Positions 4,937-48,738 of a stretch of DNA of 64,000 nt are shown here, piece by piece. The number at the start of each line of letters is the position of its first letter. The stretch's first letter is position 1. The translations under genes were made by a program, and so were the position numbers. The notes under the pieces are model-generated. The model saw nothing but the letters and a program-made list of their open reading frames with translations, had not been told where the DNA came from and did not search any database. Origin of the DNA: Candidatus Omnitrophota bacterium (GTDB lineage: Bacteria > Omnitrophota > Gorgyraeia > Zapsychrales > Fredricksoniimonadaceae); assembly GCA_903908245.1 (NCBI GenBank), contig CAIVRE010000007.1:4984-68983 (forward strand), written 5' to 3'.

Positions 4937-5010
4937 GCGAGAGTAATTCAGTGGCAGAATGCCAGCTTCCCAAGCTAGCTACACGGGTTCGATTCCCGTC
5001 TCTCGCTCCA
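4937..5010 (+). tRNA. tRNA-Gly (anticodon CCC)
   Basis: Manual fold: acceptor stem GCGAGAG/CTCTCGC, D-stem ATTC/GAAT, anticodon loop TTCCCAA, T-arm ACGGG-TTCGATT-CCCGT, discriminator T, and an encoded CCA. Confidence 0.8.
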
Positions 5011-5019
5011 TATATTTAC

Positions 5020-5721
5020 ATGAACTTCAGGAAAAAGCGATTCCTTCAGTGGGTCGGGGTATTAATGCTGTGCGCGTGGCTTTCCGGCTGCGCCACGGTG
5101 CGCAAGCCTTCCGTGGACCTTCCTTCCCTTCCGGGGAAACCTGTTCAGACCAAGGGCGTGTACCATAAGGTTAACAAGGGCGAGACGCTTTGGCGCATCA
5201 GCAAGACATACAAGATCTCCGTCGAGGATATTATCCAGGCCAATCGCATCCCGAGTGCCGCGTCCATCGAAGAGAATCAGCTGCTCCTTATTCCCGGCGC
5301 CGATACGGTAAAAGATGTTATTCCCCCGCAGGCTCCCGGCGGGAAAGACACGGATTATTGGTGGCCGCTCAAGGGCAGGATCGTTTCATATTTTGAGGAC
5401 CGCAAAGGCGCGCATATTAATCTCGGCGTGGATATCAAAGGCGCCGAGAATGACGCGGTGAAAGCCGCGCGCGAAGGGCGGGTGGTTTTTGCCGATCATC
5501 TTGCGGGTTATGGCACGACGGTGATGATCGACCATGGCGACGGGTTTATTACTGTTTACGGGCACGGGGGCCGTCTTCTGGTCAAGCTCGGGGATTATGT
5601 CTTCAGGGGAGAGAAGATCGTTCAGCTTGGGGAAGATGCCCAAGGGGCGTTCATGCATTTTGAACTGCGCAAAGGGGTTGCACCGAAGAACCCTTTGCAT
5701 TATTTGCCGCGGGAGATGTGA
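5020..5721 (+). CDS. LysM domain / M23 family metallopeptidase lipoprotein (NlpD-like)
   Basis: Lipoprotein signal (LMLCAWLSGC), a LysM segment (YHKVNKGETLWRISKTYKISVEDIIQAN) and M23 motifs (GAHINLGVDI...HGDGFITVYGH). The ORF-track start at 4951 lies inside the tRNA, so I moved the start to ATG 5020. Confidence 0.85.
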   Translation: MNFRKKRFLQWVGVLMLCAWLSGCATVRKPSVDLPSLPGKPVQTKGVYHKVNKGETLWRISKTYKISVEDIIQANRIPSAASIEENQLLLIPGADTVKDVIPPQAPGGKDTDYWWPLKGRIVSYFEDRKGAHINLGVDIKGAENDAVKAAREGRVVFADHLAGYGTTVMIDHGDGFITVYGHGGRLLVKLGDYVFRGEKIVQLGEDAQGAFMHFELRKGVAPKNPLHYLPREM

Positions 5722-7829: not shown

Positions 7830-8321
7830 ATGGATATTCTTTGGGCACCCTGGCGTGAGAAATATATTAAGCAGTGCGGCTTCAAGAAGGATGGCTGTAT
7901 TTTTTGCCAGATCCTCAAGGCAAAGCAGGATGCGAAGCATTATATTTTCCTGCGTTCGGCGCATTCTTTCGCGGTTCTTAATATCTATCCTTTCAGCGGC
8001 GGGCATTTTCTGGTCATCCCCAACCGCCATGTGGGGGATATATCGGCCCTGACGGCGGACGAGCGTGCGGATATCATGGACCTTCTGGCCGACACCAAGG
8101 ACCTGATGGACCGGGCGTATAGACCGGAAGCGTTTAATGTCGGGATGAACCTTGGCAGCGCGGCGGGCGCGGGGATCCCGGAGCATTTGCATATCCATGT
8201 CGTGCCGCGCTGGAAGGGCGATGTGAATTTTATGCCGGCGATCTTCGGGACGAAAGTGATCCCGGTCGCGCTCGATAAGGTTTACAAGAGGTTGAAAGAT
8301 GCGCTCAAGGGCGGACATTGA
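7830..8321 (+). CDS. HIT family hydrolase
   Basis: Histidine triad in EHLHIHVVPR, and a C-x-x-C N-terminal region (GCIFCQIL) as in HIT proteins. Confidence 0.8.
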   Translation: MDILWAPWREKYIKQCGFKKDGCIFCQILKAKQDAKHYIFLRSAHSFAVLNIYPFSGGHFLVIPNRHVGDISALTADERADIMDLLADTKDLMDRAYRPEAFNVGMNLGSAAGAGIPEHLHIHVVPRWKGDVNFMPAIFGTKVIPVALDKVYKRLKDALKGGH

Positions 8322-9495
8322 AAAGTTCGAGAATGACGTTTTAGCGCCATACGCCATGCGTTCGGGCGAATCCTGGGGCCGGCAGTATAAAGAGGCCGAG
8401 CATTCCAGCCGCACCTGTTTTCAGCGCGACCGCGACCGTGTGGTGCATTCGGAGGCTTTTCGGAAACTCGAGTACAAGACGCAGGTTTTTGTTATTTTTG
8501 AGGGGGATTATTACCGCACCCGATTGACGCATACCATTGAAGTGGCCCAGCTGGCGCGTACCATCGGCCGGAATCTCGCGCTCAATGAGGACCTTATTGA
8601 AGCGGTCGCGCTCGCGCATGACCTGGGGCATTCCCCTTTCGGGCATGCCGGGGAGACCCTGCTCGACGAGCGGTTGAAGTCGGCAGGCCTCGAGGGGTTC
8701 AATCATAATCAGCGCAGTTTCGAGATCGTTTCAAAGTTTGAAAAGCGTTACCCTGATTTTGACGGGCTTAACCTGACGGTGGAAGTGCTGGTGGGCATCC
8801 TCAAGCACGAGACCCTTTTTGACCGCAAGGGCGAGATGAAGGTGGTCGAAGAGGCCGCATTCCGCGACAAATTGCGCAAGCGCGCGTGTTCTCTTGAGGC
8901 GCAGGTGGTCGACAAATCCGACTCGCTGGCGTATTTGAACCATGATGTGGACGACGGGTTGACGTCGGGGTGCATCACGGCGGAAGACCTTAACGCAAGC
9001 ATGCTTTGGAGGCGCGCGATGGAAAAGGTGCGCCGCCCGGGGGTGGAAACGGGCACGGACATGTTCAAGTACCAGGTCGTCAAGGAGCTCATTGACATGC
9101 AGGTGCGCGACCTCTTGACCGCCACGAATGAACGGGTGGAGAAGTTCCGGTTTTCTTCTTTTGACGATGTTGCCCGGTGCGAGGAAAAGCGCATTGTGGC
9201 GTTCTCCGACCAAATGAGCGCGGAGCGGGAGCATCTTCAGAGCATCCTTAACGAAAAGCTTTACCAGCACTGGCGTGTCGAGCGGATGACCTCCAAGGCC
9301 AAGCGTATCTTAAACGAGCTCTTTAATGTTTACATGGATAATCCGAAGCAGCTTCCGTACGAGATCTTTGACCGGACAAAGAAATATACCGACAAGCAAT
9401 TGCATGTGATCGTTTGCAATTATATCGCGGCAATGACCGACAGGGCGGCACTTGATGAATACCAGCGACTTTTCGAGCCTTACAAAAAAGTATAA
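8299..9495 (+). CDS. dgt: dGTP triphosphohydrolase-like HD-domain protein
   Basis: HD motif (THTIEVAQLARTIG...LAHDLGHSPFGH) and the overall dGTPase layout. 398 aa. Confidence 0.85.
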   Translation: MRSRADIEKFENDVLAPYAMRSGESWGRQYKEAEHSSRTCFQRDRDRVVHSEAFRKLEYKTQVFVIFEGDYYRTRLTHTIEVAQLARTIGRNLALNEDLIEAVALAHDLGHSPFGHAGETLLDERLKSAGLEGFNHNQRSFEIVSKFEKRYPDFDGLNLTVEVLVGILKHETLFDRKGEMKVVEEAAFRDKLRKRACSLEAQVVDKSDSLAYLNHDVDDGLTSGCITAEDLNASMLWRRAMEKVRRPGVETGTDMFKYQVVKELIDMQVRDLLTATNERVEKFRFSSFDDVARCEEKRIVAFSDQMSAEREHLQSILNEKLYQHWRVERMTSKAKRILNELFNVYMDNPKQLPYEIFDRTKKYTDKQLHVIVCNYIAAMTDRAALDEYQRLFEPYKKV

Positions 9496-10525
9496 ACAGA
9501 TCATTTCGGCGGTGCATATCGTTTACCGCCTGGTGAATTCCACGCCCAACCTCAAGGAGCTGTCCTTGAGGCTGACGCGCCTGCTGTGCCAGTTCGTCCA
9601 CGCCTCGTCGGCCAGCATCTACCTGCTCGCGCCGGACCATAAAAGATTGCATATGATCGCGGTGTTCAACAACAAGATCAATATCCTGCTGACCAGTCCC
9701 AAAGACCTGAAGAAGGCATCCGCGAAAGATCTGAGCGTGGCCCAGGGAAGTTCGATCTTTGAAGACCGGATGATGGGGATGCCCCTGGTCACGGATGAGT
9801 GTATCGGCGCGATCGTGATCCGGCGCAAGCCTGTCGAGCCGGCGTTCGATGATTATGACCGCGAGATGTTCACGATCTTCGCCGAACAGTCGGTGACGGC
9901 GATCCGTAATCTGCAATATGCCGAGCAGCAGCAGAAGATCCTTCTTGAGACGATGAAGCTGGTGCGTTCCCTGTTCGAGAAGCAGGGCGATTCTTACCGG
10001 GGCCACAGTTCGGTGTATTTCAAGATCGTGCGCGCGGTGGCGCAAAAATTCCGGATGGGCACGGAGAATATCAATAATCTTTATTATGCTAGTGTCCTGC
10101 ATAATGCCGGGGCAGTGGATGTCCCTTACCAGGTGCTGGCCAAGAAAAGCCAGCTTACGTCCAAGGAGTTCGAGATCATCCGCAATCTTCCCAAGAAGAG
10201 CGCCGAGCTGATCAAGCCGATCGAGTTCCTGAGGCCGGTCCTCCCGGTCATCCTGTACTTGCACGAGAAATATGACGGGACCGGATACCCGGCGGGATTA
10301 AAGAAGGACCAGATCCCCCTGGGCGCGCGGATCATGGCCGTGGTGGATGCGTTCGAGTCGATGGTGCAGGGGCGGCCGTACCGCAAGCGCCTGAATGTTG
10401 ACGAAGCGTTGCGGGAGGTCCGCAAGAATTCCGGCACCCAGTTCGATCCTGTCGTCGTGGATGTCTTTTTGAAGCTGGCGCTGCAAAAAAACTTCAGAAA
10501 TTACTTGTGCGCGGTTCGCGAATAA
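9452..10525 (+). CDS. GAF domain-containing HD-GYP phosphodiesterase (c-di-GMP specific)
   Basis: N-terminal GAF-like region, and a C-terminal HD (ASVLHNAGAV) with the ...HEKYDGTGYP motif diagnostic of HD-GYP. Confidence 0.85.
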   Translation: MMNTSDFSSLTKKYKQIISAVHIVYRLVNSTPNLKELSLRLTRLLCQFVHASSASIYLLAPDHKRLHMIAVFNNKINILLTSPKDLKKASAKDLSVAQGSSIFEDRMMGMPLVTDECIGAIVIRRKPVEPAFDDYDREMFTIFAEQSVTAIRNLQYAEQQQKILLETMKLVRSLFEKQGDSYRGHSSVYFKIVRAVAQKFRMGTENINNLYYASVLHNAGAVDVPYQVLAKKSQLTSKEFEIIRNLPKKSAELIKPIEFLRPVLPVILYLHEKYDGTGYPAGLKKDQIPLGARIMAVVDAFESMVQGRPYRKRLNVDEALREVRKNSGTQFDPVVVDVFLKLALQKNFRNYLCAVRE

Positions 10526-10588
10526 AACTATAATCATGGTAATCGCCGTTCCATTAATTGCATCCCTTTATCCCGGAATTGGTTCCAT

Positions 10589-11194
10589 ATGAATATCAAC
10601 TATAAAGAAGCGCAATTCGAATTTTTTCCCAACGCGGTCAGTGCACCCGATGAAACCAAGCGCCCGCATTTTATGGCCGCGCGGTTCAACCTGAGCATTG
10701 AAAACCTTGTTATTTTTTCGATCGTGAGTATAATGGTCGTCATCTTTACTTTCTCTCTCGGTGTTGAGAGGGGGAAGAGGATCGCATTACGGGACGGATC
10801 GAGCCTTACGCTTGATCCAAAGACGGCGGAAACGTCTGTGGCCCCGGCCGATCCTGTTGTAACGGCAAAGCCGGTGGTCAAGGTTCCCGTGGTAGCGGCA
10901 CAGTCGAAGAGCGTCGATCTGGCGGAAAAAGTTTCAACGACGGCACTCCAGCCTCAGGATGCCGTCAAGAAACCATCCGGCGGGTATACAGTCCAGGTGG
11001 CGTCGTACAAGAGTGAAAAGAGCGCGCAGAAAGAAGCCCAGGCGCTCCAGAAAAAAGGATTGAAAGCTTTTGTGCTGCCCAAAGGGCAGCATATCGTCTT
11101 GTGTGTGGGCAACTTTCAGAAAAAGGAAGACGCCAGTATTTACGGGAAAAAGTTAAAGGGCAATTATCAGGATTTCGTAGTCAGGAGATTATAA
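10589..11194 (+). CDS. SPOR domain-containing membrane protein
   Basis: N-terminal TM helix and a C-terminal SPOR-like fold (GGYTVQVASYKSEKSAQKEAQALQKKGLKAFVL...VLCVGNF). Confidence 0.75.
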   Translation: MNINYKEAQFEFFPNAVSAPDETKRPHFMAARFNLSIENLVIFSIVSIMVVIFTFSLGVERGKRIALRDGSSLTLDPKTAETSVAPADPVVTAKPVVKVPVVAAQSKSVDLAEKVSTTALQPQDAVKKPSGGYTVQVASYKSEKSAQKEAQALQKKGLKAFVLPKGQHIVLCVGNFQKKEDASIYGKKLKGNYQDFVVRRL

Positions 11195-11195
11195 G

Positions 11196-11471
11196 ATGTC
11201 GTTACACTCATCACTTCGGGTTGACAAAGCTGGCGCCGCGGCAAGGACTGTGCTGACGCGCGTTGAGCGTATCAAAGAGCTTATGAAAAAGGGGCAGTTC
11301 AAGGCGGACGGCGAGGTTACCAATTTGCCGAAGACCAAGGTGGTCCGCGTCAAGGCCGGGAAAAAGAAGGCCAAGGAAGAAGGCGCGGCCGGCGCCGCTG
11401 GTGCGGCCGGTGCGGCACCTGCCGGGGCAGCGGCCCCTGCGGCCGGGGCAAAAGCTCCCGCGAAGAAGTAG
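11196..11471 (+). CDS. small basic Lys/Ala-rich protein (histone H1-like low-complexity tail)
   Basis: 91 aa. The C-terminus is KAGKKKAKEEGAAGAAGAAGAAPAGAAAPAAGAKAPAKK, encoded by a GC-rich simple-sequence tract. Starts 2 nt after the SPOR gene. Confidence 0.45.
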   Translation: MSLHSSLRVDKAGAAARTVLTRVERIKELMKKGQFKADGEVTNLPKTKVVRVKAGKKKAKEEGAAGAAGAAGAAPAGAAAPAAGAKAPAKK

Positions 11472-11482
11472 GCGGCGCGCGT

Positions 11483-12265
11483 ATGCGTTGGCCCTGTCTT
11501 CTGGTCATGTTATTGTTCGTTCTACCCGAGCCTGCCTTTGCGCAGGCTCGTTTTCCTTATACGGCGCAGACCGTGTCCGACCGGGTGAATGTCCGGGCCG
11601 GACAGAACAATAATTTTGAGTCCCTGGCGATCCTTCCCAAAGGCGTGCTGCTTACGGTCCTGGACAAGAAATTCAAGTGGTGCAAGGTGTCTTTGCCGGC
11701 GGGTGCGAAGGCGTTCGTCAAGAGCGCGTATATTCGATTTTTGACGCCCGATCTTGGGGAAGTAACGGTTGACCGGCTTAATGTCCGTTCGGCGCCGAAT
11801 ACCGATGCGACAACGGTTGGCCAGTTGAAGCAGGGGCAGAAGGTCCTTGTTCAGAAGAATGCCGGCGAGTGGGTCTGGATCAAGCCGGCGGAAGGCGTTT
11901 ACGGATGGGTGAATGAATCGCTCCTTGTTTTCAGGAGTGACGGGGCTCAGCCGAGGCTGGATCCTGTCCCTAATGTTGTTCCATCGGTGAAGGTTTCTCA
12001 GGCGTCGGCGGCCCGGATGGCGCTTCTCAAGAAGAATGCCGATGGTTCGGTCGAATGTGCTGGAAGGCTCGTTGGCGCCGAGAATGCTCCGGCGGCGTAT
12101 AAGATCATCAATGGGGATGTGACCGTGTGTTATGCGGATGGCGTCAAATCCGTTCTGGATGGTTTTATCGGAAGTGAAGTCCGCTTGCAGGGGACAATGA
12201 AAGTTCTTCCTTCCGAAACGGATGCTGCGGTCATCTTACTCTCAAAGATCAGCCTGGCCCTCTAA
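11483..12265 (+). CDS. secreted protein with two bacterial SH3-like domains
   Basis: Signal peptide (LLVMLLFVLPEPAFAQA), and the SH3b-like segment VNVRAGQNNNFESLAILPKGVLLTVL...KWCKV occurs twice. Confidence 0.65.
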   Translation: MRWPCLLVMLLFVLPEPAFAQARFPYTAQTVSDRVNVRAGQNNNFESLAILPKGVLLTVLDKKFKWCKVSLPAGAKAFVKSAYIRFLTPDLGEVTVDRLNVRSAPNTDATTVGQLKQGQKVLVQKNAGEWVWIKPAEGVYGWVNESLLVFRSDGAQPRLDPVPNVVPSVKVSQASAARMALLKKNADGSVECAGRLVGAENAPAAYKIINGDVTVCYADGVKSVLDGFIGSEVRLQGTMKVLPSETDAAVILLSKISLAL

Positions 12266-12888
12266 TGCTTGAACCCGTCCTTGTCATTTTATTGATCGTT
12301 ATTCCAGCCATTGTCCTGCACGAGTTTGCTCATGGCTGGGTGGCGAACCGTTTGGGAGATCCGACGGCCGCGCGCATGGGGCGGTTGACACTCAATCCGG
12401 TCAAGCATATTGATCCTGTGGGGACGATCCTTGTCCCGGGGCTTTTGTATTTGGTGCATTTTCTGGGATGGAGCCGTTCGCTGCTGGTTTTCGGATGGGC
12501 CAAGCCGGTACCGGTGGATTTCAGTCGGCTTAACAATCCCAAGCGTGATATTATCTTTGTGGGCCTTGCCGGGCCGCTGATCAATTTTGCGTTGGCGTTC
12601 ATTTTTGTCCAGCTGTCGGTATTCGGGCATTTTTCCGCGTTAGGGGCCAAAATGCTGGTTTGGGCGGTCATGTTGAACCTGGGGCTGGCGTTCTTTAATT
12701 TGATACCGATCCCGCCGTTGGACGGGTCGCGGGTCGTCGCGGGATTGATCCCGGCGCGTTGGGAAAGAAGTTATTTTGCCCTGGAACCGTTCGGGTTTGT
12801 GGCGGTGATCATTTTATTGAATACGGGGATGCTGGATTTTCTCGATCCGTTGATCTATGGGACGGCTGTGTTGATGGGGTTGAAATGA
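12265..12888 (+). CDS. site-2 protease family M50 metalloprotease (small membrane form)
   Basis: HEFAHG (HExxH) in the first TM helix, a distal LDG motif, and multiple TM segments. 207 aa. Confidence 0.8.
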   Translation: MLEPVLVILLIVIPAIVLHEFAHGWVANRLGDPTAARMGRLTLNPVKHIDPVGTILVPGLLYLVHFLGWSRSLLVFGWAKPVPVDFSRLNNPKRDIIFVGLAGPLINFALAFIFVQLSVFGHFSALGAKMLVWAVMLNLGLAFFNLIPIPPLDGSRVVAGLIPARWERSYFALEPFGFVAVIILLNTGMLDFLDPLIYGTAVLMGLK

Positions 12889-13973
12889 AACAGATCACGG
12901 TAAAGCTGAAAGGGAATTCTTATCCGATCGTTGTCGGCGGCCATGTGCTGCCGCTTTTGCCGGAATTCCTTAGGAAGCTCGGGCTTGGGACCGATGCGGT
13001 GGTTATTACGAACCCGTTGGTGAACAGGCTCTATGGTAAAGCCCTGGCTGTTTCGATGTTGAAACAGAGGTTCTCGGTCAAGTTCTTTGAAGTGGAAGAT
13101 TCCGAGAGGGCCAAATCTGCGGAGGTGGCGTTCGATCTGATAGGGAAGATCGCGTCTTACGCGGCGGACAAGAAGCCGGTCATCATCGCGCTGGGCGGCG
13201 GGGTGGTGGGGGACTTGTCCGGGTTTGTGGCCGCGGTTTATAAACGCGGGGTGCCTTTTGTCCAGGTTCCGACGACGCTTCTGGCCCAGGTGGATTCATC
13301 CATCGGAGGGAAAGTCGCGGTCGATCTGCCGCAGGGCAAGAACCTTGCCGGGGTGTTTTATCAGCCGAGGCTGGTATTGGCGGATACTTCGTTATTGTCG
13401 ACCCTTCCCAGGCGTCAGGTCCGTAACGGCCTGGCGGAGGTCATTAAGTATGGCGTTATCAAGGACGAACAATTATTCACCTTCCTGGAGAAGAATTATA
13501 CCGGGATATTGGATGGTGATACGGCGGCACTGTCGCATGTGGTCCTGGCCAGCGCGGCCATTAAGGCGCGGGTGGTCGAGCTTGATGAAAAGGAAACAAA
13601 GGGCTTGCGCACGATCCTGAATTTCGGGCACACCATCGGCCATGCGGTGGAAGCCGCCGGAGGGTATAAAAAATACCATCATGGCGAGGCGGTGGCGCTC
13701 GGGATGCGGGTGGCGTGCGCGATCTCCTGCCGGATGAGATTGATGAAGCCTCTTGACGCGGAGCGGGTGGAAACGTTGTTGTCTGCCGTTGGGTTGCCTG
13801 AAGAGATCAAAGGTATTTCGCAGGACCGGATATTGAAGGCCATGCAGTTTGACAAGAAGTTTTTGGGGTCAAAGAACCGTTTTGTGCTTTGTGAGGCGCT
13901 GGGGCACGTGGTGGTGAAAGAGGCTGTTCCGTTAGCGGTGGTCGTCAAGGCATTGCGAATGATCGCTGGCTGA
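12885..13973 (+). CDS. aroB: 3-dehydroquinate synthase
   Basis: MKQITVKLKGNSYPIVVGG...ALGGGVVGDLSGF...GHTIGHAVE. ATGA overlap with the M50 gene. The ORF-track start at 12759 is an upstream read-through. Confidence 0.9.
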   Translation: MKQITVKLKGNSYPIVVGGHVLPLLPEFLRKLGLGTDAVVITNPLVNRLYGKALAVSMLKQRFSVKFFEVEDSERAKSAEVAFDLIGKIASYAADKKPVIIALGGGVVGDLSGFVAAVYKRGVPFVQVPTTLLAQVDSSIGGKVAVDLPQGKNLAGVFYQPRLVLADTSLLSTLPRRQVRNGLAEVIKYGVIKDEQLFTFLEKNYTGILDGDTAALSHVVLASAAIKARVVELDEKETKGLRTILNFGHTIGHAVEAAGGYKKYHHGEAVALGMRVACAISCRMRLMKPLDAERVETLLSAVGLPEEIKGISQDRILKAMQFDKKFLGSKNRFVLCEALGHVVVKEAVPLAVVVKALRMIAG

Positions 13974-13975
13974 TC

Positions 13976-14530
13976 CTAGCGTTTGATCGGCAGGATCTTT
14001 TTTGTTCCGTTCTCCATGATGGTCACGCTTTCAAAGGTGATCGCCGCAATAATATTCCCGTCGACAACTTGCCCTTCTTCGTAAACATTTCCGTTGATCA
14101 GCGCGACCATTTTTCCGCCCATATCCATAACGCCTTCCACCCGTGTTCTATCGGGGGCAGGGGGTTCGGCCGGAGGCCGGAGCGGCATGGCCGGCAGGGC
14201 GGTGTTCGCGGCCTGGGCTATGGACGGTGGCGGGACAGGCGCAGCGGTGGTTTGTGTTGGAACAGGCGTGATGGCCCGGGCTTTGATCGCGGGATGTTGT
14301 GTTGTTTCAAAACCCAGTTTTAAGATGACGGCGAAGATCACGATCACGGCGATCGTGAGTACGGTCGCCATCAGGATGGAGAGGGTGACCTTGGTGGTGT
14401 CAGGGGAGCGGCCTGTGGCAGGGTTTGTTGTGATGGTGCCCGCGGGATCTTCTTTGGGAGGAACGGCATCAGGCGCTGTGTTCGGCCCTTTGCTTTGGAC
14501 TTTTTTGAGTGCGTCGTGGATGATGCTCAT
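13976..14530 (-). CDS. GspB-like protein (putative partner of the ExeA/GspA-like ATPase)
   Basis: Minus strand, with an ATGA overlap with the ExeA-like gene. Has an N-proximal TM helix, a Pro/Ala/Thr-rich linker and a small C-terminal beta domain (GKMVALINGNVYEEGQVVDG...). The gene pairing mirrors exeAB. Confidence 0.45.
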   Translation of the reverse strand: MSIIHDALKKVQSKGPNTAPDAVPPKEDPAGTITTNPATGRSPDTTKVTLSILMATVLTIAVIVIFAVILKLGFETTQHPAIKARAITPVPTQTTAAPVPPPSIAQAANTALPAMPLRPPAEPPAPDRTRVEGVMDMGGKMVALINGNVYEEGQVVDGNIIAAITFESVTIMENGTKKILPIKR

Positions 14531-15327
14531 ATCAGGGCTTCTTTGGCAGCGGTTTTTATAATGGTTTCATTGATCGTCCAGGTCTCGTTCACGAATCCGG
14601 CCAGCAGCGCGTGTTCGCAGAGGACGTTGATGACCCGGGGCGTCCCTTTGGAAAAGTGGTGGACGGCAGCGGCTGCGTCATCCGTGAACAATAACTTTTT
14701 CGAAGCCCCGGCGATCTTGAGGCGGTGATCGATATAGTGATGGATATCGTCTTTTTCAAGCGGGTGGATATGGTAACGGACCCCAATGCGCGAGTTAAGC
14801 TGGCGCAGGGACGGCTTTTTCAGTTTTTCCAGCAGTTCGGGCTGGCCGACCAGGATGATCTGCAGTAATTTTTCTTTTTCTGTCTCAAGGTTGGAAAGCA
14901 GTCGGATCTGTTCGAGCTGATGGGTGTTGAGGTTCTGGGCTTCGTCAATGATGACGGCCACATTGTGCCCCTGGGCGGTCTGGTCGATCAGGAACTGGTT
15001 GAGCGCATTGATCAGGTCGAGCTTGTTGTTCTTGGCGGTGATCCCCAGGTCTTTGGTGATCAGTTGCAGGAGCTGTATTTGTGAGAAGTTCGGGTTAAGG
15101 ATAAAAGCGGTTTTGATGGAAAGGTCGATGGTATTGAGCAGGATACGGCAGAGGGTGGTCTTGCCTGTTCCGACTTCGCCTGTCAGGGCAATGATCCCTT
15201 TGCGGGTTTTGATCCCGTAAAGCAGGTGGGAATAGGCTTCTTTGTGCCGGGAACTTTCGAAATAGAACGCCGGGTCAGAGGTGATGTTAAAGGCATTTTC
15301 CTTGAAACCGTAGAATTCTTTGTACAT
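14527..15327 (-). CDS. ExeA/GspA-like AAA+ ATPase
   Basis: Walker A (LTGEVGTGKTTL) and Walker B (VIIDEAQNL). Its length and pattern are typical of the T2SS-associated GspA ATPase domain. Confidence 0.8.
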   Translation of the reverse strand: MYKEFYGFKENAFNITSDPAFYFESSRHKEAYSHLLYGIKTRKGIIALTGEVGTGKTTLCRILLNTIDLSIKTAFILNPNFSQIQLLQLITKDLGITAKNNKLDLINALNQFLIDQTAQGHNVAVIIDEAQNLNTHQLEQIRLLSNLETEKEKLLQIILVGQPELLEKLKKPSLRQLNSRIGVRYHIHPLEKDDIHHYIDHRLKIAGASKKLLFTDDAAAAVHHFSKGTPRVINVLCEHALLAGFVNETWTINETIIKTAAKEALI

Positions 15328-15417
15328 AGGGAAACATTATACCACATGACCTTTTTATTCCCCGGGAGTGAGGAATGTGAGAAATCAGTAAAATCGTCCT
15401 TTTTCATGGGGTTGCTA

Positions 15418-15426
15418 TGGTATACT
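15418..15426 (+). promoter_or_regulatory. putative extended -10 promoter element (TGgTATACT) for the PilZ gene pair
   Basis: TGnTATACT lies 21 nt upstream of the AAAGGA RBS and the ATG at 15447, in a divergent intergenic region. Confidence 0.35.
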
Positions 15427-15446
15427 GCATTTATTAAAGGATAATC

Positions 15447-15824
15447 ATGGAAATGACCCCCGGTTTTGACAACAGACGATTTCAGCGGGCGCCGTTCAAG
15501 CGGCCGGTGAAGAGCAAGACGTCCCATGTGGCGATATATGCCGGGAACCTGGCGCAGGATATCAGCCAGGGCGGCATGCGGATCAATTCCAATGAATTTG
15601 TGGCTGTCGGTTCCCATGTCATCCTGCAGATCCAGCTTGAAAGTCAGACCAGGGTCCTGGATTTCAATGCGAAAGTGGTCTGGGTCAAGGAATTGCCGTA
15701 TTCGGACGGGTTTCAGCTCGGACTGGAGTTTGCGGAAGAAGCTGTTTTTGAGAAATTGAAGGTTGCCCAATTCGTGGTCAAGCGTAAAGAGGAGGGGACG
15801 AGTGAGCCAGAAGGATTGTATTGA
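15447..15824 (+). CDS. PilZ domain protein (c-di-GMP receptor, single domain)
   Basis: RRFQRAPFKR (RxxxR) and DISQGGMRI (D/NxSxxG) are the PilZ c-di-GMP binding motifs. Confidence 0.75.
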   Translation: MEMTPGFDNRRFQRAPFKRPVKSKTSHVAIYAGNLAQDISQGGMRINSNEFVAVGSHVILQIQLESQTRVLDFNAKVVWVKELPYSDGFQLGLEFAEEAVFEKLKVAQFVVKRKEEGTSEPEGLY

Positions 15825-16179
15825 AAAACGGCGGCATCCGCGTATTGAACATGGTGTCCCTGTTAAGATCTGCGCTCCTTGTGCCGACCTTGTTACCGAG
15901 ACCAAGAACATCAGCCGTTCCGGGGTCTATTGCCGGGTCAGCAAGTATCTGGAGCCAATGACCAAGCTCAAGGTCACGCTCATGCTTCCGGTCAAGAAAG
16001 AGGGCCGGCTGCATACCAAAAAGATCATTTGCTCGGGCGTGGTGGTGCGTGTCGAGAATATCCCGTTTGAAGACGCGTTCAATGTCGCTGTCTTTTTTAA
16101 TGAGATCAAGCCCGGCGATGGCCGCGCCCTGGCGGATCATGTCCAGGGTGTCCTTGTTGAGAAATCCCGCGCTAATTGA
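15802..16179 (+). CDS. PilZ domain protein (second tandem copy)
   Basis: KRRHPRIEH (RxxxR) and NISRSGVY (NxSxxG). GTG start at 15802 sits 6 nt after a GAGGAGG RBS. The ORF track gives ATG 15763 as the alternative. Confidence 0.7.
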   Translation: MSQKDCIEKRRHPRIEHGVPVKICAPCADLVTETKNISRSGVYCRVSKYLEPMTKLKVTLMLPVKKEGRLHTKKIICSGVVVRVENIPFEDAFNVAVFFNEIKPGDGRALADHVQGVLVEKSRAN

Positions 16180-16388
16180 GAAAATTTTTAGAGGTTTGTT
16201 TTATGGACAGTTCCGCGATCAATCTTTCCGTGACCCCCTTGCAGGCATTGCTTGCCTTGGCGTTCCAGGCGTGGCTTGTTATTTTCCCTCTTATCCTGAT
16301 GCGTAAGATCAGCCGCCTGGAGGCTCTTGTTGAGGCGCATTTCGGCGGTAATGACGATGCTCCTTCCGAGGAGACGGAGAATGTCTAA
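16176..16388 (+). CDS. small hypothetical membrane protein
   Basis: 70-aa ORF with one hydrophobic helix that fills the gap between the PilZ and rluA-like genes. No recognisable family. Confidence 0.25.
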   Translation: MRKFLEVCFMDSSAINLSVTPLQALLALAFQAWLVIFPLILMRKISRLEALVEAHFGGNDDAPSEETENV

Positions 16389-32257: not shown

Positions 32258-35200
32258 ATGCCTCAGGGGTCTTTCATTAAAAACTTCGGGCAATCCGCGG
32301 CGAACTTTTTCTTTTTCACCGGGGCTTTCTTTCTGGTCGTTTTCGCGGCCTGGGGGGCGGGTATCACTGTTCCCCAGAATTCCCAGTTAAAACTCAATAC
32401 CGGCAAACTGAACCTCAAGCTTGATAATAATTCCGGTCACGTGAATAACGCCGGGGTCATTCAGATGACGACCGGCGAGATCAAGCTTAACGGCAACTGG
32501 ACAACGACTACTGCCTCAGGATACATTTTAGGCGGTTCGGGGACGGTTGAGTTCGCGGCGGACGCTGGCACCCAGTATATTGTGCCGGGGGCGAACAGCA
32601 ATGACACGTTCGGCGATGTGGTCCACAGTGGGTCGGCCGCGGTCGAGCTGGTCGCCCATCCGATCAAGATCGGCGGGAGTTTTAATAACAACGTCGGGAC
32701 ATTTAAAACTAACAATCTTAATATGACGGTGGGAAGGGATTGGAATAATCCGGCATTCCCGGCGTTCATTTCCGGGTCTGCCACTGTTAACCTGGATGGC
32801 GGGGACCAGGTGATCTCCGGGAGCACGACATTTAACAATCTTACCAAGGTCCTGACTGCGGCCGGAAATCATTCCCTGACTTTTCCTTCCGGCAAGGAAC
32901 AGAAGGTTTCGCGTCTTTTGACCCTGCGGGGGTTCGGCGGTACGGGGAAACTGTTCCTGGGGAGCAGTACCAATACCACACAGGCTTTTCTGACACTGCA
33001 GAATAGCGGGGTCCAGGATATTCATACGGTGCATGTCCGGGATAATAATGCCGGCAATGGGCTTGTGCTGGTGGCGCGCGGGGTGGATTCCAGCGACTTG
33101 GGGAATAATTTCCATTGGTTGTTCGGTGCTGTCACGGTCAAATGGGACGGATCCGAGGACAATGACTGGAACAATCCGTTCAACTGGGATGTTGGCCTGG
33201 TGCCGGGGGAGCTTGATACCGCGATCATTCGTGTCTTCGACGAGGATACAGGGTTGCCTATTGTGCGGGAGCCGGTATTGAGCGGGGGGATCTCGCCTGT
33301 CACGGGGCTTGCGATCACGAACCGTGTCGGGAATTTGATCATCCGTCCAGGGGCGACATTAAAACTGGATGGACGGGATATGACCATTGATGGCGGGTTT
33401 ACCAATGATGGTACGGTCATTCTTGACGGCATGGTCATGGTTGGCGGGGTCAGGACGGAAACGTTGACGGCCGGCAGCATGGTCGATAACGGGACGTTCA
33501 TGTATTACGGCCGGCCTGGCATGAAATCCACGATCGATCTGACCCAGAGCTTTCTGATCGGCGGGAATTATCTGACCACATTCAACAATCTGGTGATCAA
33601 TGAACAGGTTTCGGGTCCTTTTGAATCCGATACTTTTGTAACAGGCGTTCCGCTCACGATCAGTCATGCGATGACGCTTGATGCGGGTGCGTTCACGATC
33701 GGTCCCGGGTCCACGCTTTTTGTCCAGGGCAGTTTAACGGCGAATGGCGGCACTTTTACGATCAGTGAGGCTGTCAGTGTCACGGGTGATACGAATATTT
33801 CCGGGGCATCGGTGGTGATAGCCAGCAATACAGCCACGTTGACGGACCTTCGGGACCTGAATGTTTCCTCCGGCACGCTCAATGCCCTGCAGGGTAATAT
33901 CCGTGCGAACAGTGTGAATATATCCGGTGGTACACTCCTGGCTCCGGGGCCGGGACAAAGCTTTGCCATCTCCGCGGACTTTACGCATTTGCCGGCCGGG
34001 ATTTTTACGCACGACAATGGGACCGTTACTTTTGACGCTTTGTCTAATGCTGCGAACACCGATCAGGTTATTTCCGGGGATACATCTTTTTATGATTTCG
34101 TCAAGCAAGTCCCGGATGCGGCATTCGTCGGCCAGACGCAGAGGCTGACTTTGGCTGAAACTTCCACACAAACGGTGGGGAATTATCTGACATTGACGGG
34201 AGGGGTGGATCTGCTTCTGATCCGCAGTACGACCACGACCGGCGTGGCGGGGAATTTGAAACTTGTCACCAACGCGGGGCAGACCATTAGGAATGTCGAT
34301 GTGGAGAATAACGCCGCCACGGGCCTGACCCTGGTTGGCCGCGGCTTGTCCAGGAGGACAGGGAACAATACCCCGAACTGGGAATTCGGGTCGGCCACGA
34401 TCACCTGGGATGGTTCCGAGTCGACGGATTGGAATGAGCAGCGTAACTGGAACCTGGGCATTATCCCTCTTCCGAACGATAATGTGGTTGTGACCAACGG
34501 CGCGACCGTTGATTTCCAGCCGGTATTATCCAGTGATGTGACCGTGGGTGAGCTCACCCTGTTCGTGCCATCCGCGACTTTGCACCTTGCGGGGTTCAAC
34601 ATGACGGTTCACAATACGATCACGTCTTCCGGGACCCTTTCCAATGAGGGGGTTATTTTCCTGCGCGGCACAGAGCGTGTGAGCATTGATACTCCGGATA
34701 CGGATTCCGGGATGTTTGTTTACCAGGGAGATAATAACCCTGGTGTAAAACAGATCACGGTTTTGGGCCCGAATACTTTTTATAATCTGAAGATCAATGA
34801 CCTCAATGGCAATCCTTCCAATTTCACGCTTACGACCGATATGACCATTCATGGTTCTTTGACGGTCGATGGCGGAACGATGACTTCGAGTGGTTATAGC
34901 ATTGATCTGGGCGGGAGTTTTGTTCTGTCGAGCGGGACGTTCATGGCGCCGGGGACCGGAAAAACGTTGTTTGTCGGCGGGAATTTCACTCATACGGGGG
35001 GTGCCTTTATCCATAATGACGGGACCGTGGTGTTTGATGCCCCGGCCAGTGTTCCGTTGAACGACCAGGTTATTTCTGGGGACACGAGTTTCTTCGAGTT
35101 CATCAAGCAGGTCCCGGTGACGGCCGCGCCGCTGCAGCAGCTGACCTTTGCCGATGCTTCGCTCCAGTCGGTGCTTGGGAAGCTTGTCCTCCAGGGGGCA

Positions 35201-38200
35201 TCCCTGGCTAATCCTTTGCTTATCCGGTCAAGCCTTGCGGGAACGGCGGCTTATTTGAAACTTGAGGTCGGCGGGCGTCAGACCATTTCGGCGGTCGATG
35301 TCAAGGATTCAAATGCTTCCGGGGTTACCCTCGTGGCCCGGAATTCTCCGGACCATTTCGATATCCCTCCCAGTAATTTTTACAATAACACGAACTGGGT
35401 TTTCGGGGTCCCGGTCATAAGATGGGACGGTTCCGCGTCCACTGATTGGGGGGATCCGCTCAACTGGAACCTCGGGATTGTCCCGATCTCCGGGGATGCT
35501 GTGGTCATCCGGTCGATCGACCCTCTGAGCATTCCACCTGGTCAGCAGATCATGAATCAACCGCAACTGACCGCCTTGTCGGGGGCGGTCTCTCCAGGAA
35601 GTATGACGCTTGATTCCGGGACGACATTGACCCTTAACGGCTTCGGCCTTACGGTCCAGGACACGTTGACGAATAATGGCAATATCATTGCGCAGGGAGG
35701 GGAGCCTATTGCGATCCATTTTCCTGATACGCAGCACGGCACATTTACCTATACAGGCGTGCCCGGCGGAACGGTTGCGCTGAATAAATTCGACCCCGCC
35801 CATACGGCTATTGAGTATTATAACCTGGTCCTGACGGATAACGGAGTTGCCAATTTGTTCCAGAGCCAGGGCGATGTCCATGTTTTCGGCAATCTGACCG
35901 TGTCTTCCGGAAGCCTGGATGTATCGACCGGCAGCGATTCGTTAAAGATCGACGGGAACATGCTGATCGCTTCCGGCACGACCGTGAACGCTTTGAACGG
36001 CGCGATTGATCTGCAGGGCTCGGTCAGTATTAATGGCCGTCTTTCAGCGCCGATCACCAATCATTCGTTCACTGTCGGAGGCAGCTGGTCGCTTGACCCT
36101 GTGACCGGGATATTCGAGCACAATTCCGGGCGGGTGACGTTTGATACATCCAATGCCACGACACTGACGGGGAACACGGTGTTCTTCGACCTGGCGATCG
36201 AATCCAATAGCGGTAAAAAGGTATTTTTCCAGGCGGGGAGTACCCAGACCATCCTTGACTCGCTGGGTATGGTAGGCGGAGGGGCGGGCAAGATCATTCT
36301 GCGTTCGACCCAGGAAGGGACGCAATGGACCCTTCTGCTGAGTTATATCAATAATGCCGATGCAACGATCATCCCCAATACTCTTGTCCGGTTCGTGGAT
36401 GTCAAGGATTCGATCGCGACAGGCCCATTAGGGCTGGCCGTCAGGCCGACCTATATTACGGCGATCAATTCCATTGATCAGCCGTCGGTCCTTCCGAATC
36501 AGGGGTGGAAGTTCATGCAATTGACCTTGATCGCTCCGGTGGATGAGCGTGTGGTGGGGGTGAGGCCGGTCCTGATCGGCCAGGCTTTCCCGGAAGAGGC
36601 ATATACGGTGAAGGATAAAGGAGGGGTTGTGGTGGCGTCCGGGACGGCGGATAGCCACGGGTATTTCCGGACGGAATTGACCGCGGACCTGCCTCTGGGA
36701 GCAAATCAGTTAACGCCTTATTATTTGAGCGTCCCCGGCATTTCCAGTGACCTGACAATCGACGCGGCCCCTGTCCCTGCCCAGGTGCCGGTGATCACCA
36801 GTCCTTCGGTATCTGTCCGTTTGAGCGGTAACCGTCCGACGTTCACCGGGGTGGCCAAGCCCAATACTTTGGTGTATGTGGTCGCCAACAATTATACGAT
36901 CTCCAATAACAACACGATCGACATGCCGTTAACCCTTCCGCTGGAGAGTGCCGCGGGCGTCGGCATGTCGGATGCGGCAGGGAACTTTTCGATCCAGTTG
37001 ACAACAGCATTGAAGCGCGGACAGAATACGATCTCGGTGGTGGCGGACGGTGTTTCCAGTGCGATAAATACGTATTCCTTGAATGATATTTACGGGTATC
37101 TTTTTGATTCCGCGACGAACAATACCATTCGCGGGGCCAGGGTGTATCTGTATAAACTCGATGGTAACGGCCAGAGGATCCCGGTCGTCAGGGGGCTTGA
37201 TATTGCTCTTCTTGAAGCGGACCAGCCTAACCCGGTCCTGACCAATGACGCCGGTCTTTTTGAGATCCGGGTGATCAATTTTGACCCGACGGTCCGGTAT
37301 GTGCTTGATGTGCAGGAGCTTGGCTACACCTTTCCGACAGCGATCAAGGACAATAGCCTGCTTCCGGCTGGCCGCCTGATCATAACGGGATCGCGTGGAG
37401 AGGCTTTTTCATTGCTGACGGATTCTGTGCGGCTTGACCTGCCGGTTGATGCCAATCAGTTCCTGTTCAAGGTTACCAAAGATGCCAACAAGGCGGAAGC
37501 CAGGATCGGTGAGGTCGTGACCTATACCGTAACCATTGAGAACCTGTCGGATCAGAATACGGTCCTGGAGACCCGGCTGAATGATATTATTCCGCCCGGG
37601 TTCAAGTATATGAGCGGCCGTGTTCATTTTGTTGACGGAACGCCGATCGAGGCGTCCGGTGCCCGTCCGGTCGTCTTTAAGGTCGGGGCATTTACTGCAC
37701 GCCAGATCAAGGCCATGAAATATCAGCTGGTCATCGGCGCGGGTGTCGCTCCGGGTGATTATGAGAACACCGCGTTCATGAAATATGACAATGGTTCGCT
37801 GATCTCCAATCGTGCGCATCAGACCGTCAAGGTTGTCATGGATCCCTTATTTGATGCGGGGACCGTGTTCGGAAAGGTTTTCTGGGACCTTAACGAGAAC
37901 GGCCGTCAGGATGCGCCGGAATATGATTATGAAAATCGCCAGGAGATCATTGAAGGCCCGGTGCCCAACGTGCATATCGTGATGGAGGATGGCACCAGTA
38001 TCGCGGCGGATAAGAACGGGCAGTTCCATGTCCCGGCCCTGTTGCCCGGGCGGCATGTGATCATGGTCGATCAGCGCAGCCTGCCGAAGGGCGCTTTTCT
38101 GACGACGGATAAAGCCTTGGTCATCGATGTCACGGCCGGCATGGTGGTCAAGGCGAATTTCGGCGTGAATATGGGCAATGGCCAGATCGTCGGGGAAGAC

Positions 38201-42595: not shown

Positions 42596-42654
42596 TCACA
42601 ATTAATCAATATAAATCAATTAATATAAGGTCCACGACGACGTTTATCTCCTTG

Positions 42655-48600: not shown

Positions 48601-48738
48601 AAAGAATTGGCAAAAGCTTCGTATAAACAAAAGACAGTTGCTGTTCCTTTCCCGGGTTCTTCCGCGATAAAGGCTGATGGCCGTCAACAGGCAGTTTCCC
48701 AAATGCTTGACCAGGCTGAGTCGGGTGCCGTGAAGTAA
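42655..48738 (+). CDS. 2027-aa predicted lipoprotein composed of ~20 tandem helical repeats (unrecognised repeat family) plus a highly charged coiled-coil C-terminal half
   Basis: ATG 42655 gives the signal peptide MKKPAYILLFLLSACFLPLKG (possible lipobox LSAC). A 62-100-aa unit recurs: '(A)E.LY.QA..LYK...Y.EAK.KF.EVE..(Y/F)PDYK.TR.YL.RID.DI' followed by a K/E/R/Q-rich linker. The ORF-track start at 42532 overlaps the giant gene. Confidence 0.8.
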   Translation: MKKPAYILLFLLSACFLPLKGIYAQPPAEGEPSVLADGQPSVLKEDKAQSNYVYDLKVLIQKSRENIKNVNEKIKDQAVKKRNQQREEKAREYFLQAQKLADEGRLEESRQLYAKAISITEHPEMKYFIKESEHRAKLQKAALSKEESEQQRRTEEDEKTAFERVENMYQGAVSLYKQQRFKEAKEEFQTVEEVFPDYKAVRSYLQIIEQDIVQAERQGIKDQQKEIESQQKESEIARLREKELWRKEIDRKEEDRKRQVQKQAQGVYDEAIKLYQDRKYMAAKEKFQEVEWVIPDFKSTRSYLQRIERDLEVDKERVTQERQQTVGKQRWEETLSQKKAEEERKKAESMRERQKLEGKKDQAEFVYQSAIALFNKDQYPVARERFDEVENIYPDYRSTRDYLKRIDEMMKSQIARDEGLRRTATEQKVFEEESAKRKEEKERFKKLTDEADSIYAEAFELYKMGRLIEAKEKFLDVDKRVPDYKSTRSYLSRIDADIEAMVAANRKEGNLAAQQEQLTRLKELRDKADMAYNEAVLAYDNKNYTDAKAKFLEVESIYPNYKKAGTYLSRIDDDIASRQKEEERREKEKQVEGVYAQALVAYQNEEFEESKAKFIEVVSLVPDYKQTSFYLERIDDDVIRHKQKALDDAQERQAETLYNQAVALYQAGQYSEAKDKFLQLESVYSNYKDAVKVFANIDADIQRKALEDEQKAKAARAEVLYQQSLALYQAQDYTAAKEKFILTEVVYPDYKDTPKYLLSINSDIKKKAEDLEQRRKADEAEPLYVQALALYKEQDFEAAKKKFLQVQMACPGYKETERYLARVDEDIRLLQSRLAKEDRLSKAEGLYAQAMSLYSETKFEEAKGKFQEVAALESNYRNVRAYLARIDSDIRNEQARLARIEQEQLAEPYYAEAVALYHDGKFEESKPKFEKVIRILPDYKKARFYFTRIDNDIRSQKQEEVRQRQEQAEAAYREAAFLSRNGDDTKAYQKYSEVETIYPDFKATRKALKDLKEGLIQKSIVLPKKVLAVAPVVTSEPVRTGEEEVLALYKEGVSLYKDKKYAQAKDKFEGVERLRSGYRSTERYLKNIAVELPGPGEGAKPKEVLAQTPVLSGNSRQIYDQEVTAAEPLYKAALELYRSARYEEARVKFHEVEAVSRDYKSTREYLLLIAKVKGGPSPVVDQQLVQESRTVADLSQKSGLLYSQIRALADDKDLAAAAKTFSKIDKIVESLEQEKKRLARTIERGEKEARERAGRIKAVEKEEARSVEKSAAVHQQDLKQKQVEKKDEEERARQAVAMKEQQDLKRKERARLAQVQEMERENALKAEVLYRQGLGKLNDKNYALAKERFMDAQKVLPGYKDTDQLLVRIDKVEGEQKLLEQENVDHGKIATIAEKANAVNLEALALSTAKNFTDLQKKFDELSSLLKDIQAIKAQMLARREGFRVEWETKLAASRARSAVPRPIKDAKAMVEGRTARQQAEGFYKEGEVFYHAGQYAEARVKFRDAFSADPTFKAAYTFSLRVDRILERRDFEEQQDRGNRERRHFEDKQEGKEHPASVDDLQMPDPARAKEVFGEGIALYKAKSYKEARIKFEELMKVGDDSQRSKARRYLGLIESGIEKARQEMEKERTREEARYLEAKRMEIRMAWEKDKGLQAQQLADSSASNQRGQEVAVERQVLLRSIEQENDAQRKKMLAEKLRQKDIAERQTLTEWGKVRKIAAHQDVKMDVKAPAMPDKVDAGKLLLVPAKKVEPVPRKEKSVPVDEGKSPVQEVKVAVAVAATDVKTEARSREKLAASSMKKKPLLVTATDSREDAKFQRLITREKALEARETERKRLIMEQEHRSRELEKMRLEEKKQRALDNQNRREQRGGKAVVVSVPGKPEVGVQVPVAAVPVVLAPPLKGAGSFDVYKVAANEEKRRLEEQRSAIVHDFEVGVERLYVEAQDLYTKHAYEESKADFDQINELSKGYKRTEQYLTLINKELAKASYKQKTVAVPFPGSSAIKADGRQQAVSQMLDQAESGAVK
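42950..47520 (+). repeat. tandem array of ~19 coding repeats (period 190-300 nt), with one more degenerate copy at ~48440-48610
   Basis: Repeated ...PDYK(S/A/Q/D)T(R/S)xYLxRIDxDI... blocks seen, e.g. at ~43240, 43540, 43840, 44100, 44330, 44520, 44710, 44890, 45080, 45270, 45460, 45650. Confidence 0.7.

Follow-up and report, generated by a model that had tools for sequence, protein, structure and literature searches.

A minimal ExeA/GspB-class ATPase-adaptor pair in Candidatus Omnitrophota, probably serving a secretin encoded elsewhere

The window analyzed here is a 64,000-nt stretch of Candidatus Omnitrophota contig CAIVRE010000007.1, and all open reading frame (ORF) positions given below are counted within it. 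It encodes an ExeA/GspA-type AAA+ ATPase of 266 aa (14527-15327, minus strand) followed by a GspB/ExeB-like bitopic inner-membrane adaptor of 184 aa (13976-14530, minus strand). We consider it reasonably probable that the pair is a domain-minimal operon of the GspA/ExeA-GspB/ExeB class for assembling or stabilizing a secretin encoded elsewhere, probably PilQ of a type IVa pilus (T4aP). The ATG of the adaptor gene and the stop codon of the ATPase gene share the sequence ATGA, a 4-nt overlap indicating that translation of the two is probably coupled. A preliminary description of this DNA had placed such a pair opposite two overlapping, tandem PilZ genes across a gap of ~120 bp, and this arrangement was confirmed: all four ORFs are present, the divergent gap between the ATPase gene and the first PilZ gene measures 119 bp (15328-15446), and the same four genes appear in independent public gene calls on identical contigs. 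At its other end, the pair meets aroB (plus strand) convergently, with only 2 nt between the stop codons of aroB and the GspB-like gene (13973-13976). Since this leaves no room for a terminator, the two transcripts must overlap or read through.

The ATPase matched AAA_22 in Pfam (E 9e-27), and both of its Walker motifs are intact (A, GEVGTGKTT, residues 50-58; B, IIDEAQ, residues 126-131). Its residues 1-263 aligned with residues 1-264 of the 547-aa ExeA of Aeromonas caviae at 41% identity (E 9e-70), and the alignment takes in the N-terminal motif of the family, MYxxFxGxxExxF. Beyond the shared part, A. caviae ExeA continues into a transmembrane (TM) segment, a GspA_C39-like domain (340-436), and PG_binding_1 (453-506), and its gene is followed by that of a T2SSB-positive ExeB. 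Because the alignment ends where ExeA runs into these additional segments, the 266-aa protein corresponds, as judged from sequence, to nothing beyond ExeA's cytoplasmic AAA+ ATPase domain. Indeed, neither inspection of the sequence nor a Pfam scan revealed a hydrophobic or TM segment, a periplasmic domain, or a peptidoglycan-binding domain within its 266 residues; the earlier impression that a peptidoglycan-binding domain was missing is thus correct, since the protein ends before the TM, C39-like, and PG_binding_1 segments of ExeA begin. The ATPase is also 43% identical to a GspA-type protein of Ideonella, whose next gene is an annotated GspB, and 40% identical to an ATPase from an MSHA-type cluster of Legionella, encoded at the MshM position after mshL, the gene for the secretin. 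The GspA of E. coli K-12 proved a poor comparator, having only the P-loop in common with the window protein (E 0.053).

The partner of the ATPase showed a consistent layout when 33 homologues were aligned: an invariant N-terminus, MSIIHDALKKVQ (codons 1-12; 14495-14530, minus strand), a hydrophobic helix, a Pro/Ala-rich linker, and a conserved C-terminal stretch of ~55 residues, the periplasmic linker (residues ~78-126) being variable in both length and sequence. AlphaFold2 predicted a single TM helix coinciding with the hydrophobic sequence (codons 45-77; 14300-14398, minus strand), with a predicted local distance difference test score (pLDDT) of about 94-96, and a six-stranded C-terminal domain (codons 127-184; 13979-14152, minus strand) with a pLDDT of about 94-97. 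When this domain was searched against the PDB with Foldseek, the top four matches were 3oss_C, the HR domain of E. coli GspC in complex with GspD; 4wfw, Dickeya GspB/OutB; and 3jc8 and 2lc4, both PilP. The match to 4wfw had a root-mean-square deviation of 1.9 A over 54 columns, with 26% identity and a probability of 1.00. Because the domain is small, the Foldseek E-values were weak (0.02), with probabilities of 0.98-1.00. Profile-profile comparison with hhalign likewise aligned the HR domains of the adaptor family and of Aeromonas ExeB and Ideonella GspB (probability 87.9%, E 3e-6). When members of the family were scanned singly, 14/33 matched T2SSB, 20/33 CdsD_C, and 4/33 T2SSC, all below gathering scores, with 2.4e-6 as the best T2SSB match. 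The C-terminus, as modeled, is therefore an HR-type domain of the same class as the secretin-N0 binders GspB, GspC, and PilP; in OutB and ExeB, the HR domain binds the secretin's N0 domain (PMC9239104, PMC4098917). That the 184-aa protein is GspB-like, as had been proposed, is upheld by its ExeB/GspB N-terminal motif, TM helix, Pro-rich linker, and HR fold, even though it misses the T2SSB threshold. Searching PDB sequences with the profile of the adaptor family returned low-complexity and TM noise only, and it took a fold search to reveal the HR kinship; the GspB of E. coli K-12, which has neither the N-terminal motif nor an HR domain, was set aside as a poor comparator.

To place the pair in a wider context, we assembled 80 related loci from a scan of one genome per species, with ATPases 57-83% identical to that of the window. 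Nearly all come from Omnitrophota metagenome-assembled genomes (MAGs), some of them filed under other labels. A search with the partner profile found a homologue of the adaptor directly downstream of the ATPase in 78/78 informative loci, the start and stop of the two genes overlapping by 4 nt in 31 loci and by 17 nt in 20. A block consisting of an HD-GYP gene, a SPOR gene, a gene for a 91-aa protein, SH3b, M50, and aroB, followed by the convergent gspB-like and exeA-like genes, is kept across the phylum. The median identity of the ATPase across 20 loci was 64%, compared with 70% for UvrB and 55% for AroB, and the ATPase is, by this measure, a strongly constrained protein conserved nearly as much as UvrB. 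The family is large, comprising 9,776 clusters (50% identity) at E<=1e-3 and 1,815 at E<=1e-10, almost all annotated as hypothetical, and a profile search of a 5.8-billion-protein database returned unnamed Omnitrophota-type proteins only and no named GspB. The ExeA-family ATPases associated with transposons or insertion sequences in Streptomyces, Mycobacterium, and Geobacillus (~33% identity) were considered as relatives as well and were rejected, since the Omnitrophota ATPase invariably has a partner of the GspB type and keeps a stable place on the chromosome. In MAGs labeled Gammaproteobacteria (L064, L068, L072, and L077), the ATPase is 57-58% identical to that of the window, compared with 41% for Aeromonas ExeA, and in L007, labeled Elusimicrobia, it is 75% identical and its gene order is that of Omnitrophota; these five copies suggest mislabeling, mis-binning, or horizontal transfer.

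The most sharply conserved part of the adaptor is its N-terminus, which opens with M-S-I-I-x-[DE]-A-L-K-K-x-Q in 78/78 partner genes. Related motifs open Aeromonas ExeB (MSTLLKALRRAD), Ideonella GspB (MSYILDALRRAD), an MshN-like protein of Legionella (MSLLNEMLKDL), and a Sel1-repeat partner in Scalindua (MSIIDDALKKTQ). The motif-bearing N-terminus is thus retained where the periplasmic module differs, namely Sel1 repeats in the Scalindua locus (L058) and TPR in the Legionella protein. In exopolysaccharide (EPS) loci, the gene downstream of the ExeA-family ATPase encodes an outer-membrane barrel or a Wzz-like protein, and these do not have the N-terminal motif. We infer that the peptide MSIIHDALKKVQ is likely to be the docking site for the ATPase. 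In the Scalindua locus (7932-16002), the 366-aa ExeA-like ATPase and its Sel1-repeat partner, which shares the N-terminal motif, are followed by genes for a histidine kinase with a GAF domain and a platform protein resembling GspF, and then by two pilin-like genes; to judge by its gene content, this is an MSHA-like arrangement in a planctomycete. One could go considerably further and propose that MS(I/L)(I/L)x(D/E)AL(K/R)(K/R) is a general docking handle by which soluble ExeA-type ATPases drive interchangeable adaptors (GspB-like with HR, MshN with TPR, Scalindua with Sel1), and that the Omnitrophota module is a near-essential core component for the T4aP or Tad secretin of predatory or parasitic nanobacteria, gated by cyclic di-GMP (c-di-GMP) via the PilZ pair and the HD-GYP protein. 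Taken as a whole, we regard this larger scheme as speculative and quite unlikely.

If the adaptor binds a secretin, that secretin must be sought outside the window. As had been noted earlier, the window holds no other genes of a type II secretion system (T2SS): Pfam scans of the long ORFs revealed no secretin, T2SS, or type IV pilus (T4P) gene in the 64 kb, and phmmer searches of window ORFs of at least 50 aa with the Gsp and Hof proteins of E. coli gave no T2SS, T4P, or secretin match. Among the related loci, L058, L071, L072, and L075 have T4P or T2SS genes no more than 8 kb from the pair, and a search with E. coli GspD and HofQ found no secretin in any flank. Previous work has shown that most Omnitrophota encode a T4aP and many encode Tad/RcpA, hence secretins are common in the phylum (PMC10066038). 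A link between an ExeA-like ATPase and pili comes from Pseudomonas aeruginosa, where PA5037, encoded beside aroB and pilMNOPQ, affects piliation, the mutant having fewer pili (PMC6321873).

We therefore propose the following working model, in which the soluble ATPase would grip the cytoplasmic N-terminal peptide MSIIHDALKKVQ of the adaptor, the flexible Pro-rich linker of the adaptor would span the periplasm, and the HR domain, by homology with OutB, ExeB, GspC, and PilP, would dock on the N0 domain of a secretin whose gene lies elsewhere. The likeliest such secretin would be PilQ of the T4aP, with RcpA of a Tad system or a GspD as alternatives. ATP-dependent oligomerization or remodeling of the adaptor might then aid assembly of the secretin, its crossing of the wall, or its connection to the inner membrane. 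Since both proteins are without a module for binding peptidoglycan and nothing follows the HR domain in the adaptor, the peptidoglycan-triggered multimerization described for Aeromonas ExeA cannot work here as it does there; in Omnitrophota, the step that depends on peptidoglycan must be either absent or supplied in trans.

Several observations weigh against assigning the pair to secretin assembly. When the 184-aa protein was checked against the T2SSB/GspB models, as the preliminary description had suggested, the outcome was unfavorable: a Pfam scan gave no T2SSB (PF16537) match at E<=1, and pairwise BLAST to ExeB was insignificant. The best NCBIfam family of the ATPase is TIGR03015, which is associated with PEP-CTERM and EPS systems, and no secretion family. 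Genes for a secretin, T2SS, or T4P are absent from the 64-kb window and from the flanks of 76/80 related loci. Moreover, the Aeromonas mechanism, the only one worked out by experiment, centers on a peptidoglycan-binding domain that is missing from both proteins. Loss of PA5037 in P. aeruginosa left PilQ multimers unchanged (PMC6321873), and "secretin assembly" may therefore be too narrow a description. Finally, conservation close to that of housekeeping proteins and a fixed place in a run of housekeeping genes could indicate a broader role in the envelope.

Comparison with characterized systems helps to delimit what is shared. With Aeromonas ExeA/ExeB, the window pair has in common an ATPase 41% identical over the whole cytoplasmic domain, including MYxxFxGxxExxF and Walker A and B; an adaptor in which an MSxxxxALKK/RR N-terminus is followed by a single TM helix, a linker rich in Pro, and an HR domain at the C-terminus; and the gene order, with the genes abutting or overlapping. 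It differs in that the ~280 further residues of Aeromonas ExeA (TM, C39-like, and PG_binding_1) are missing, the HR domain is too diverged for Pfam T2SSB, and the pair stands in a conserved housekeeping block; furthermore, Aeromonas ExeA/ExeB serve the secretin of a T2SS, whereas no T2SS is known for the window organism. In the archetype of Alteromonas and Pseudoalteromonas, GspA forms without the periplasmic, peptidoglycan-binding part have already been described together with a GspB partner that has an HR domain (PMC9239104). Those GspB proteins are notably longer, however, and sometimes carry DUF3391 (PMC9239104), whereas the GspB-like protein of the window, at 184 aa, ends right after its HR domain. 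GspB has been found only in Gamma- and Betaproteobacteria (PMC9239104).

MshM/MshN offers a second parallel: the ATPase is ExeA-like, soluble, and short (in Legionella, 303 aa with 40% identity), the bitopic partner opens with MSLLNEMLKDL, and this system works with a T4P secretin, MshL. Its partner, in contrast, has TPR and no HR domain, and its genes, flanked by mshL and mshE, are part of a pilus cluster. The relative in Scalindua belongs to this MshM/MshN type, while the window pair, which agrees in ATPase length but has an HR partner and no pilus genes in the window, does not. A third parallel is PA5037 (PA14_66580), which is known to us from the literature and not by alignment. It is an ExeA-type ATPase beside aroB with a SPOR domain in its vicinity, is encoded after pilMNOPQ-aroK-aroB (PMC6321873, PMC9712689), and is associated with the T4aP through a mutant with reduced twitching and fewer pili (PMC6321873). 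Unlike the window pair, PA5037 is one polypeptide that includes a SPOR domain (PMC9712689), and no GspB-like partner is reported for it; the window, by comparison, has SPOR on a gene of its own, 3 kb away, and a partner with an HR domain.

The PilZ genes opposite the ATPase invite a further reading, in which the PilZ pair binds c-di-GMP and directly regulates the ATPase or the cytoplasmic peptide of the adaptor, so that assembly of the secretin or pilus is gated. PilZ1 (15447-15824, plus strand) and PilZ2 (15802-16179, plus strand) are single-domain PilZ proteins of 125 aa each. The mechanical ORF of PilZ2 begins at 15763; its real start is the GTG at 15802, which is preceded by a strong ribosome-binding site, AAGAGGAGGGG, and from which the 125-aa product is 100% identical to public protein P0121. 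Given this start, the two PilZ genes overlap by 23 nt. Like other single-domain PilZ receptors (PF07238), both proteins pass the Pfam threshold (PilZ1, E 4.5e-14 and 53.0 bits; PilZ2, E 1.6e-6 and 28.8 bits; cut-off 22.5) and keep both motifs, which are RRFQR (residues 10-14) and DISQGG (residues 38-43) in PilZ1 and RRHPR (residues 10-14) and NISRSG (residues 36-41) in PilZ2. Both arginines of RxxxR, the Ser of the second motif, and its last Gly are conserved in at least 90% of 37 PilZ1 and 41 PilZ2 homologues, and the first residue of (D/N)xSxxG is Asp in at least 60% of PilZ1 homologues and Asn in at least 90% of PilZ2 homologues. Both PilZ proteins are thus, on the strength of these motifs, very probably genuine c-di-GMP receptors. 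Because they are only 20% identical to each other, they do not appear to stem from a recent tandem duplication and would be old paralogues at most. Directly 3' of PilZ2, a conserved small membrane protein of 61 aa is encoded (16203-16388, plus strand; public gene call); its gene travels with the PilZ pair and the rluA-mazG-uvrB block, and homologues occur in most loci that have the PilZ pair.

Whether the PilZ proteins act on the ATPase and adaptor is a different matter. The PilZ pair was divergently adjacent to the ATPase in 36 of 70 informative loci, over the full 57-83% range of ATPase identity. In 6 loci, inserted genes push it 1.6-4.8 kb away, and in the remaining 28 it is missing from the flank; several of these 28, e.g., L014, have recO and a nuclease gene in its place upstream of the ATPase. 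Adjacency is thus lost in 34/70 loci, and where the pair is displaced it mostly remains with the small-protein/rluA/mazG/uvrB block and not with the ATPase. As a control, we scored aroB, which has no conceivable functional link to the pair, and found it convergently adjoining the partner gene more often, in 50/73 loci; therefore, PilZ adjacency is at the background level of gene-order conservation. In the Scalindua, gammaproteobacterial MAG, Aeromonas, and Legionella contexts, the vicinity of the pair is free of PilZ genes, and no precedent for a PilZ-ExeA interaction was found in literature mentioning both.

Promoter predictions point the same way. For the exeA-like operon, an extended -10 element, TGgTATAAT (15336-15344, minus strand), ends 8 nt before the ATG of the ATPase with no Shine-Dalgarno (SD) sequence between, and since so little separates the two, the exeA-like mRNA is probably leaderless or nearly so. 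A pattern search found an equivalent -10 box 4-9 nt before the ATPase ATG in 57/78 loci, whether PilZ or RecO is encoded upstream, so this promoter persists without PilZ; in the remaining loci, the box lies about 20 nt upstream of the ATG together with an SD sequence. The pilZ1-pilZ2 unit has a predicted extended -10 of its own, TGgTATACT (15418-15426, plus strand), 20 nt upstream of the PilZ1 ATG, and a TGnTATAAT-like box lies upstream of PilZ1 in most of 35 related intergenic regions, as judged by eye and uncounted. The two units each appear, from these predictions, to have their own extended -10 promoter. A search of the divergent intergenic region for a shared regulatory element yielded only the two separate extended -10 boxes, a generic promoter and terminator scan of the same region stayed at background level, and Rfam searches of the window and of eight related loci found no riboswitch, whether for c-di-GMP or of another kind. 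We also observed a conserved GCCACGG element between the promoter and the PilZ1 start in 11/36 sequences (35 related loci and the window), namely L013, L015, L022, L028, L033, L035, L038, L063, L070, L076, and L080, but not in the window itself. In 7 of these 11, it can pair with CCGTGGC just before the ATG, enclosing the ribosome-binding site. The element matched no Rfam family, and this leader may form a hairpin for translational control or a binding site for a protein or ligand.

In favor of a c-di-GMP connection, a GAF/HD-GYP gene lies within the same conserved block, and in L071 and L075 an HD-GYP gene stands directly beside the GspB-like gene. A region 3-7 kb upstream of the ATPase in L071 encodes a GGDEF cyclase, a stand-alone MshEN protein, and an MshEN-bearing T2SSE ATPase; Ideonella gspAB, an unrelated pair, is flanked by a GGDEF/EAL gene; and c-di-GMP control of T2SS and T4P ATPases has precedent (PMC4624772, PMC4624765). 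In L071 (981-4564 and 9454-10938), where the pair has the HD-GYP gene on one side, the upstream cyclase has a HAMP-GAF-GGDEF architecture, and the L071/L075 lineage has, by predicted gene content, a compact c-di-GMP/pilus-ATPase neighborhood. The GAF/HD-GYP protein of the window (9452-10525, plus strand) matched HD_5 with E 1.9e-39 and retains its GYP motif (HEKYDGTGYPAGL), but HN replaces the HD metal-binding dyad (LHNAGAV), and because of this replacement the protein may be a degenerate c-di-GMP phosphodiesterase or a receptor. Overall, c-di-GMP control of the pair is possible, but direct regulation by the PilZ proteins is unlikely. The preliminary description had read c-di-GMP input into an envelope-assembly step from the locus; support for it does not go beyond adjacency, and with PilZ adjacent in 36/70 loci, aroB in 50/73, and separate predicted promoters, we infer that PilZ is not coupled to the ATPase-adaptor pair.

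A general role in the cell wall or in division, like that of DamX or PA5037 and in company with the SPOR, SH3b, and M50 neighbors, would dispense with a secretin altogether. The block from HD-GYP to the exeA-like gene is conserved across the phylum and the ATPase is conserved nearly as strongly as UvrB, both of which would accord with such a role. In Proteobacteria too, aroB, SPOR, and an ExeA-like ATPase are linked: PA5037, annotated as ExeA-like, is a homologue of DamX and belongs to the SPOR proteins (PMC9712689, PMC6321873), and E. coli has the order hofMNOPQ-aroK-aroB-damX(SPOR) (L083, 3513000-3524000), which resembles the aroB/SPOR neighborhood of the window (10589-13973) minus the ATPase. 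This may reflect an ancient linkage of aroB with accessory genes of pilus secretins. However, all characterized HR domains bind secretin N0 domains (PMC9239104), and the PA5037 mutant has a pilus defect with normal growth (PMC6321873). The link to SPOR, SH3b, and M50 is one of synteny only, in a phylum with a broadly conserved housekeeping order, and outside Omnitrophota the pair has different neighbors. We therefore regard a wall or division function as very unlikely.

The least credible alternative is that the pair acts in XrtA/PEP-CTERM (exopolysaccharide) export, on a polysaccharide or a PEP-CTERM protein and not on a secretin. It derives from TIGR03015 (XrtA/PEP-CTERM system-associated ATPase), which is the only strong NCBIfam match of the ATPase and covers its full length (283.7 bits, E 1.4e-84), and from 39% identity to an annotated member, the PEP-CTERM ATPase of D. 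vulgaris pDV1, and 36% identity to a Rhodovulum plasmid "exeA" inside an EPS cluster. The score, however, falls short of the curated cut-off of 324.5, and bona fide ExeA (41%) and GspA (43%) show identities that are at least as high. In EPS contexts, the partner is either an outer-membrane protein (TIGR03016) or a chain-length protein resembling Wzz, and these have neither the MS..AL motif nor an HR domain, whereas the partner in the window family is of the GspB type in 78/78 loci; the neighborhood differs in type as well, and Pfam scans found no exosortase, glycosyltransferase, Wza, or tyrosine-kinase genes in the window.

The wider surroundings of the ATPase-adaptor pair are aroB, M50, SH3b, SPOR, PilZ, rluA, mazG, and uvrB. 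Genes for SPOR (10589-11194), SH3b (11483-12265), and an M23 peptidase with LysM (ORF 4951-5721), all identified by Pfam, had been described as lying nearby. All three are indeed present and the SPOR gene is 3 kb away, but the M23 gene lies ~8 kb from the pair, for which "nearby" is generous, and the link is one of synteny only. A tRNA gene (4937-5007, plus strand; Rfam, 60.3 bits) overlaps the 5' end of the LysM/M23 ORF, and therefore the peptidase must start further downstream; the public call is 233 aa. The rest of the window consists of housekeeping DNA and two giant ORFs on the plus strand, one of 3445 aa with a single DUF11 match (32258-42595) and one of 2068 aa with TPR repeats (42532-48738), followed by an AsmA/YhdP-like protein at 49275-50798. 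The two giant ORFs fit the very long surface proteins reported for Omnitrophota.

Our literature search found no paper naming Omnitrophota together with ExeA, GspA, GspB, or MshM. Since GspA forms without a periplasmic region had been described before, what is new here is the phylum, the size of the unannotated family, and a sharply conserved N-terminal motif common to adaptors with different periplasmic modules. Returning to the reading we favor, in which the pair serves a secretin encoded elsewhere, these results would extend the GspA/GspB (ExeA/ExeB) secretin-assembly module to Omnitrophota. Because the module occurs here without a peptidoglycan-binding domain, its core activity may be that of the ATPase acting on the conserved N-terminal peptide of the adaptor. 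The pair would then be a strongly conserved candidate accessory factor of the Omnitrophota pili that are thought to mediate attachment to the host.

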